64,000 nt of DNA, taken from positions 108,190,001-108,254,000 of the forward strand of contig OZ024741.1 in the NCBI GenBank assembly GCA_964016885.1, given 5' to 3'. The notes under the pieces are model-generated. The model worked only from the letters and a program-made list of their open reading frames with translations, made no database searches and was not told where the DNA came from. Both the position numbers and the translations under genes were made by a program. Shown one piece after another: positions 28,316 through 29,177 of this stretch (the first letter of the stretch is position 1; every line of letters begins with the position of its first letter). The DNA is from Eledone cirrhosa. Lineage: Eukaryota.

Positions 28316-28381
28316 CTCTTCGGTTGTCTGCTGTGGGTCGCTGATGTTTTGACGCATTAAAGACAGTACATCTCACCACAG
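28316..28381 (-). ncRNA. Rearranged (pseudoknot/k-turn) hammerhead-like motif, decayed core
   Basis: CTGTGG-TGA-GATG-TA-CTGTCT-ttaatgcgtc-AAAA-CATC-AGC-GAC-CCACAG-c-AGACAA-CCGAAGA-G. Confidence 0.6.
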
Positions 28382-29120
28382 TGCGTTACTAACTAAGAAG
28401 AATTAGGGAAGAAAATAACGATAGCGAAGAGAACGACAGAAAAAAAACATAAACAAAACAAAAACATACCGATAGAGATTGGGAAATACGATACAGAAGT
28501 ACACGTAAGTTGCAGTAACCGATGGGAGAGAGAGAGAGAGAGAGAGAGAGAGAGAGAGAGAGAGAGAGAGAGAGAGAGAGAGAGAGAGAAGAGAGAGAGA
28601 GAGAGAGAGAGAGAGAGAGAGATGGGGGGGGGGGGGGGGTAAAAAGAATCCGAACGTAAGACCTGAATCTGTATTAACAGCACGAGAGTGTGCGAAGAGA
28701 AAAACGTTTGATCTTAGCGAGAACAGGCGCAAAGAGGCAGAGTCGAAGGAAAACGGAAGTGAGATGGGGGATGGTGGAAGTAGTAAGGGAGCAGCGAGAG
28801 AGAGAGAGAGAGAAAGTAGATAGATGGTAACAAATAAAGAAAATAATTAAGTTGGAGAGAGAGGGGGGGGGGAATAAGCGAGGAGAAGAGAGAGAGAGGT
28901 AGAGAAAGAAAGAGGGAGTAATGAGGAAGGAAAAGAGTTAATCTAAAATGGCAGAACTTAAGTCCAAAACCAGAATTGACCATAACAACTGAGATAGGGA
29001 GAATAGAACGGAGGTCACCGCAATAAATTTATATGAATTAAAATTAACAAAGGTGCTGTGTGGTTACTAATAAATATTGTTTAGAAAACGTAAGAGAAAC
29101 AAACATAAGGAGAATTGTGA

Positions 29121-29177
29121 CTCTTCAGCTGTCTGATGTGGGTTACTGATGTTTCGACGCATTAGAGACAGTACATC
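29121..29177 (-). ncRNA. Rearranged hammerhead-like motif, intact core
   Basis: GATG-TA-CTGTCT-ctaatgcgtC-GAAA-CATC-13nt-AGACAG-CTGAAGA-G. Confidence 0.72.

Follow-up and report, generated by a model that had tools for sequence, protein, structure and literature searches.

The stretch of Eledone cirrhosa DNA analysed here (64,000 nucleotides of contig OZ024741.1, assembly GCA_964016885.1, positions 108,190,001 to 108,254,000; hereafter the window) carries two families of repeated motifs, E and I, in which a sequence-only reading had seen a rearranged hammerhead whose helices all covary, a pattern pointing to selection on structure. We asked whether this holds when the families are followed through the assembly, which is 3.0 Gb in size and rich in microsatellites, and what kind of element carries the motif.

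Motif order and its copies in the window

On the minus strand the conserved blocks of the motif follow each other as cleavage site, GAAA and CUGANGA (S-G-C), the order by which type SGC is recognized. Type SGC is a non-circular hammerhead permutation that was described from metatranscriptomes and shown to be active in vitro (Eckert et al. 2023, PMC10085705); since repetition of S-G-C gives no circular permutation, the order found here is likewise non-circular. A type I or type III hammerhead was considered and rejected, as there is no GAAA or cleavage block downstream of the C block. Judged by its letters, the motif is a type-SGC hammerhead variant and not HRIMA-1. A scan of the window at Rfam gathering thresholds gave no matches.

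The family E element is non-coding and lies at 28225..29177 on the minus strand, 5'-truncated just upstream of its first hammerhead, with a second hammerhead and a 3' end that runs into (TA)n. It amounts to one unit, of 805 nt, inflated by a GA microsatellite. In the first motif copy (29121..29177, minus strand, spanning 57 nt) stem III pairs GATG at 29177-29174 with CATC at 29151-29148, and stem I pairs CTGTCT at 29171-29166 with AGACAG at 29134-29129; UA is found at 29173-29172, GAAA at 29155-29152, CTGAAGA at 29128-29122 and G at 29121, and cleavage is predicted after A29172 (GUA). The 5' strand of its outer helix was lost through truncation, and both its CTGA and the GA>AA change in its kink-turn (k-turn) are compatible with CpG decay. 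The second copy (28316..28381, minus strand, predicted cleavage after A28367) has the outer helix (CTGTGG/CCACAG, 28381-28376 with 28336-28331) and the k-turn signature (TGA plus AGC-GAC, 28375-28373 with 28342-28337). Its lesions are G12A, attributable to CpG decay, and AGACAA, which leaves a C-A mismatch at pair 1.1-2.1, adjoining the cleavage site; its U4C is the family-typical state. In both copies the minus strand runs from the stem III 3' strand through UA, the stem I 3' strand, a 10-nt linker and GAAA to the stem III 5' strand, and on through a 3-nt bulge plus GA, the outer helix, one base and the stem I 5' strand to CYGAAGA. When the letters were read again, the coordinates, the 57-nt span and the lesions that had been named for the two copies were correct. 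The family E pairings in stem III, stem I and the outer helix were also present as described, but they form a composite of two damaged copies, and the description of the 28316 copy, accurate as to k-turn, G12A and U4C, had overlooked the mismatch beside the cleavage site and listed a family state among the defects. Both copies are probably dead.

The sequence-only reading had also taken CTGANGA as kept and the core at 29121 as intact, a picture that changed on comparison with the rest of the family. Family E mostly reads CCGAAGA (U4C), positions 3-5 being CCG in 14, CTG in 4, CCA in 3 and other letters in 7 of 28 genome-wide matches, and CCG in 28, CTG in 11, CCA in 7 and other letters in 9 of 55 retrieved copies. 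In its core the state of the family is therefore U4C. The losses to CTG and to CCA are symmetric, which indicates CpG decay and hence an active ancestor that was U4C; the CTGA at 29121 is probably CpG decay, and the "intact" core probably a chance reversion. The related E2 and E3 subfamilies have CUGA. U4C lowers hammerhead activity in vitro yet supports viroid infectivity (PMC3088659), and family E would be an older U4C lineage, probably a slower one.

The family I element (51635..52780, minus strand) consists of about 1.8 tandem units of 640 nt and has its 3' end in (TA)n. Its motif at 51653..51718 (minus strand, predicted cleavage after A51704, AUA) has the commonest letters of the family in all 65 columns and a standard k-turn (3b-3n A-G), and is the best natural test substrate in the window; an upstream copy at 52292..52357 (minus strand) bears three substitutions. 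The pairings that had been proposed for family I (for example stem III GGTA/TACC and outer helix CCAACC/GGTTGG) were found at 51718-51653 and 52357-52292. A third family, H, had been missed. Its copy at 41136..41200 (plus strand), within an element at about 40920-41250, has a 2-nt deletion at the cleavage site. Family H is young, with copies of 95-98% identity (loci L061-L090), and is split between AUA and AUC triplets.

A first look at the genome gave 586-638 candidates in family E, 2207 in family I and 1030 in family H. The pattern YGAAA-N7-GA-N14-CTGANGA, which contains no pairing and no S block, occurred at 20,037 places compared with 87 for the reversed control, and the former is a lower bound since the pattern excludes the usual spacing of family H and the U4C copies of family E. 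Among the first 30 places UH was at its expected place in 26, stem I in 25, stem III in 23, the outer helix in 22 and all four in 20; most of the remaining 10 had lost the upstream part or had diverged. Two of the retrieved pattern places, L299 and L300, match by chance. With a strict SGC descriptor, 117 matches were obtained in 537 kb of loci and 0, 0 and 0 in three block shuffles; as these loci were collected as relatives, the difference excludes base composition as the source of the fold and shows nothing beyond that.

Covariation and core conservation

For covariation scoring, 308 copies were placed in fixed register, and clustering was limited to the 260 that satisfied a pairing filter (11 of 16 pairs). 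Twenty-three natural copies were chosen as subfamily representatives, with the 14-nt-spacing subfamily (L291-L294) left out and family H entered by its 27-nt-spacing variant. In these representatives stems I and III and the outer helix were paired in 348 of 368 cells, and double (compensatory) changes were seen in 15 of the 16 pairs, including all 10 of stems I and III. None of 500 column shuffles reached the 94.6% pairing, slid registers gave 24-46%, and a tree-aware null, in which the same number of changes was placed independently on the tree, gave 249±16 paired cells with a maximum of 298 in 500 runs.

The core evolves slowly. Parsimony steps per column came to 0.18 in the core and 0.33 at A1n, G1b and A2b of the k-turn, compared with 3.0-3.5 in the stems, 6.7 in the bulge and 6 in N7. 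G5, A6, G8, A9, G12-A15 and U16.1 are identical in all 23 representatives, and none has G at H17; U4 and C3 are each kept in 22, so that the hammerhead core of CUGANGA, GAAA and UH is present. GAAA and CTGANGA were partly search criteria; U16.1 and A1n were in none of the discovery patterns, yet are invariant. The double changes and the slow core extend the proposed selection on a rearranged-hammerhead structure beyond the two families for which it was first suggested. The claim that every helix covaries stands for stems I and III and the outer helix and fails for stem II, which has 1-3 pairs at most.

It could be argued that common descent and the choice of well-paired copies produced the covariation, given that the 23 rows come from copies that had passed the pairing filter and that GAAA, GA and CTGANGA were part of the discovery patterns. 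This explanation is largely refuted and, in our view, hardly credible. The first 30 pattern places were unfiltered and 20 were complete, the tree-aware null lies far below the observed pairing, and one ancestor plus a pairing filter cannot yield double changes in 15 of 16 pairs; furthermore, independent Naiad sequences of other phyla (read by eye) show the fold with other letters.

A different result was obtained within a family. In the 55 family E copies departures amounted to 0.24-0.26 at core CpG columns and 0.21-0.23 at CpG columns elsewhere. Non-CpG columns of the motif departed in 0.02-0.10, compared with 0.13 for the 3' flank, in a comparison whose anchor favoured motif matches; all core positions were kept in 22 of the 55. 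Decay of family E after insertion looks mostly neutral. Equal rates in core and flank had been named as an outcome that would count against selection, and such rates are approached at CpG columns among inserted copies, whereas between lineages the core is far slower. In inserted family E copies, then, core and flank lose CpG at similar rates. The selection is one seen in transposing lineages, and the sequence comparison supports the view that it acts between element lineages and not among inserted copies.

Stem II, predicted kink-turn and fold

Stem II consists of runs of 1-3 pairs. In 20 of the 23 representatives 11.1 has a partner at the adjoining base or the one after it, and in 3 it has no Watson-Crick or G-U partner; duplexes between linker and downstream sequence were weaker than shuffled ones (-1.1 versus -2.45±0.35 kcal/mol). 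On these two grounds a canonical stem II helix was ruled out. The published SGC descriptor (G10.1-C11.1 plus at least 2 pairs) fits none of the 23, which may explain why the motif was missed. Single-pair stem II is known in active hammerheads (PMC3088659). The 10.1-11.1 pair, thought to be G-C in family E and A-U in family I, proved to depend on register, as members of one family may have or lack a base after A9 (L239 versus L307). GGA follows within 0-4 nt of CUGANGA in all 23; together with the linker TTAA(T/A) after stem I it is conserved in every representative without canonical pairing. As a guess, GGA might form tandem sheared G-A pairs with the linker.

The junction between stem III and the outer helix has the signature of a k-turn, namely a 3-nt bulge with G1b in 22, A2b in 23 and A1n in 23 of the 23 representatives. 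Position 2n is G in 14, U in 8 and A in 1, and 3b-3n is U-U in 9, C-U in 6, C-A in 5 and C-C, A-G and U-G in one each; it is never Watson-Crick, and 3b is C in 12. By sequence the k-turn is standard in 13 (14 have G2n, one of these with a mutated 1b). In published k-turn rules 2n is the usual non-standard position, being U in Kt-23, and for ion-induced folding a Watson-Crick 3b-3n is bad and 3b=C or 3n=G good (Huang and Lilley 2016, PMC5061560). The motif resembles the standard Kt-7 and the non-standard Kt-23 in its 3-nt bulge, in G1b-A1n and A2b-G2n or A2b-U2n between two helices, and in a non-Watson-Crick 3b-3n; it differs from them in being known here from its signature alone. In the subfamily L291/L293/L294, and likewise in coral Naiads, Watson-Crick pairs take the place of the k-turn G-A pairs, indicating that the k-turn is not essential. 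Searches of the literature on hammerhead, k-turn and Penelope and on kink-turn and retrotransposon, with subscription journals outside coverage, gave no k-turn within a hammerhead.

Like the type SGC ribozymes of Eckert et al. (HRIMA-1 and variants, PMC10085705), the motif has the S-G-C order, a stem I predicted to be pseudoknotted, a full core and an optional base after A9, and its 13 nt between stems III and I lie within the 0-15 that their descriptor allows. Theirs are viroid-like RNAs known only from metatranscriptomes, whereas ours reside in chromosomal DNA at about 20,000 copies; their stem II has at least 3 pairs and ours is minimal and non-canonical; and their extra helix forms between the G-C linker and the 3' side, whereas here it forms with the 5' side and extends stem III by way of the k-turn signature. 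In the accessible literature, subscription journals being outside coverage, type SGC was found only in that paper and in later work merely citing it.

In the proposed fold the CUGANGA block would enter the loop of a hairpin made of stem III and the outer helix, so that stem I becomes a pseudoknot. The distal ends of stems III and I would be far apart in a hammerhead, and the k-turn would bend the outer helix back so that one nucleotide could reach stem I. In nested folding, which is a pseudoknot-free model, the outer helix and stem III were recovered for I, M, K and the 28316 copy, and an intact E copy preferred another fold; the family E scaffold was no better than shuffles (z -0.5 and -1.0), and family I gave z -3.4. 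An alternative is that cleavage requires a dimer or a protein that binds the k-turn (15.5K/L7Ae); the C block would then pair with the S-G hairpin of a different unit, and the monomeric pseudoknot would be inactive. Such an explanation would agree with the tandem units, with the small hammerheads of Penelope-like elements (PLEs) that cleave as dimers (PMC7229834), with a near-palindrome just after CUGANGA in E, M and N, and with U-U at 3b-3n in 9 of 23. However, the palindrome is missing from I, J and K, and published SGC ribozymes cleave as single short transcripts (PMC10085705), so that we regard a need for dimer or protein as quite improbable.

Host elements and a probable link to Naiads

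The motif lies near the 3' end of units of about 515-690 nt (805 in the family E element of the window), which are pyrimidine-rich and have no conserved ORF. Copies consist of 1 to 5 tandem units (arrays of five at L194 and L304), share a 3' end in (TA)n 20-90 nt past the motif, and have variable 5' ends whose parts are often inverted. Similarity is 68-82% among I, J and K units and weak for H; E and M have little in common outside the motif. The RNAs of non-LTR retrozymes are cut by their hammerheads, closed into circles chiefly by RtcB and reverse-transcribed by RTs of retroelements (Cervera and de la Pena 2020, PMC7229834); the elements originate from the ends of PLEs (Li et al., bioRxiv 10.64898/2026.07.22.740005). 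The elements described here resemble animal retrozymes in having non-coding, AT-rich tandem units with one hammerhead each, and presumably in depending on PLEs. They differ in block order, the retrozymes in the accessible parts of both sources having type I hammerheads (C-G-S) only, whereas the present non-circular permutation is missed by type I descriptors and Rfam.

We consider it quite probable that these are retroelements, likely non-autonomous relatives of Naiad PLEs, in which a hammerhead core in non-circular S-G-C order, with an outer helix and a predicted k-turn, would cut the transcript into unit-length RNAs that are circularised and reverse-transcribed into (TA)n sites. The outer helix would clamp both ends of the cleaved monomer for ligation, which by analogy with animal retrozymes might be carried out by RtcB, and a Penelope-like RT acting in trans would read round the circle to give copies of 1 to 5 units.

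Naiads target (TA)n and were reported to lack a canonical hammerhead; in eight of them half cores were noted on either side at a distance of 35-50 nt (Craig et al. 2021, PMC8557442). When 3' ends from the set of 54 published Naiad consensus sequences were read by eye, S-G-C with complementary stems I and III was seen in 10 places among the matches listed. In Naiad_Obim and Naiad_Ovul stem III is ATGG/CCAT and stem I CTGCCC/GGGCAG, with TGA plus bulge and GA; these octopus consensus sequences share with the present motif the outer helix, the k-turn signature and the 27-nt spacing from GAAA to CUGA. The squid entry Naiad_Esco shares the 16-nt spacing from site to GAAA. Of the other SGC places, three belong to Acropora, going by file order, and four are unnamed ones in supplement parts 9, 12 and 19. 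Six further places in parts 13-16 have C-S-G with full stems I, II and III, among them two nematode entries that file order identifies as Naiad-2_Nbra and Naiad-3_Nbra; type CSG is the other non-circular type and was known from two metagenome sequences. The units described here resemble Naiads in their (TA)n target, their partial tandem and inverted insertions and the motif near the 3' end, and differ from them in having no ORF; at the level of the unit no homology to the Naiad remnants was seen, and the accessible text of Craig et al. also reports no hammerhead fold. No description of an SGC-type fold in Naiads was found in the accessible literature on Naiad and hammerhead, subscription journals again being outside coverage.

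In the Eledone genome a Naiad RT motif gave 33 matches versus 5 for the control, most of which translate as decayed Naiad RT resembling the published octopus entries. The same fold was found behind these RT remnants: 7 of 20 extended loci, and 4 of another 20, contain an SGC-shaped motif downstream of the remnant in the same orientation. In 29 Naiad-remnant copies core positions 3 and 8 were U3-A8 in 23, C3-G8 in 1 and neither in 5; U3-A8 is known to compensate for the loss of C3-G8 (PMC3088659). The SGC fold together with U3-A8 is seen in decayed Naiad 3' UTRs at L341, L343, L344, L346, L353, L354, L357 and L360-L388, and in one decayed-Naiad subfamily the linker that joins stem I to GAAA is interrupted by an AT-rich hairpin. 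From these sequences the motif is likely an overlooked Naiad ribozyme with predicted catalysis.

The mobilising enzyme was sought in several ways. All 80 protein-search matches to Naiad in the assembly were decayed, with a longest open frame of 233 aa, and a pattern for the published octopus Naiad hammerhead, as well as one RT motif pattern, had no match in the genome. Blastn gave no homology between the local Naiad remnant UTRs and the E, I and H units. No E/I/H-type motif lay directly behind an RT ORF when the PLE proteins of the window were compared with the retrieved loci (tblastn), the 18 pairings all being split by a TA run, nor behind an ORF among the loci listed in an upstream-ORF check or in the 20 further Naiad loci. 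With the E, I and H motifs not linked to ORFs, no shared UTR sequence and the Naiads decayed, we infer the Naiad descent and the enzyme indirectly. Young families such as H need an active RT, for which an intact-looking Penelope element (window 7505-9697) and Hydra-like elements are no more than candidates.

Several such elements lie in the window. A Penelope-like element at 6981-11340 holds a 730-aa open frame at 7505-9697 (minus strand) with a weak RT match, and its 1662-nt perfect inverted arms indicate that it is very recent. Broken PLE frames at 2862-6134 and 33852-35460 are Hydra-clade-like (RT then GIY-YIG), and the former has inverted arms of 227 nt and, at about 5630-5870, a 70-nt sequence repeated three times. 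Penelope-like ends at 7229, 35878 and 41502 (minus strand) contain ordinary type I hammerheads whose stem III is minimal; those at 35878 and 41502 have an extra G after A9. An 880-nt perfect inverted repeat with an 11-nt spacer at 677-2447 could be a PLE inversion or an assembly artefact. A LINE-like element is present as two copies in opposite orientation, at 43331-48784 (plus strand) and 13942-19368 (minus strand), one of them with an open 1152-aa APE-RT-like frame.

The 5' junctions show no clear accumulation at the predicted cut. A TA run was found at the predicted cut in 157 cases versus 86 at a control ATAT 60 nt away, although the target TATA microhomology overlaps the site and family coverage differs. 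None of 6 family E junctions was at the cut, and the profile was flat over 297 copies, with the same overlap. Copies of more than one unit with an intact site imply a template that was uncut or religated. It was considered that the fold may be a recognition or priming signal for a Penelope-like RT or endonuclease, with slow or no cleavage, the weak stem II and U4C reflecting relaxed catalysis. The absence of a junction peak, the uncut site in nearly all 3' copies, the non-canonical stem II and the amplification of family E despite U4C would all be in line with this, as would the predicted Xenopus retrozymes, 8 of 9 of which were without cleavage (bioRxiv 10.64898/2026.07.22.740005). Such a signal does not account for G5, A6, G8, A9, G12-A15 and U16.1 being invariant over 23 lineages with H17 never G, nor for the U3-A8 swap in Naiad remnants, which keeps the pair required for the active conformation (PMC3088659), and we consider it unlikely. 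A self-cleaving, retrozyme-like element remains our preferred reading.

On the wider scale it seems fairly likely that non-circular hammerheads are resident ribozymes of the Naiad clade across animal phyla, with SGC in cnidarian, arthropod-region and cephalopod entries and CSG in nematode ones, and that one cephalopod lineage, having met the demands of the SGC topology by incorporating a k-turn in stem III, multiplied it to over 20,000 retrozyme-like copies within a single genome. The k-turn would make this a natural hammerhead that proteins could possibly switch, and the published view that Naiads thrive without hammerheads, which was used to argue that hammerheads may only parasitise PLEs (PMC8557442), would be overturned. 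Non-circular RNA permutations would move from a few hundred environmental contigs to animal chromosomes and tens of thousands of copies, suggesting a link in origin between viroid-like SGC RNAs and retroelements.
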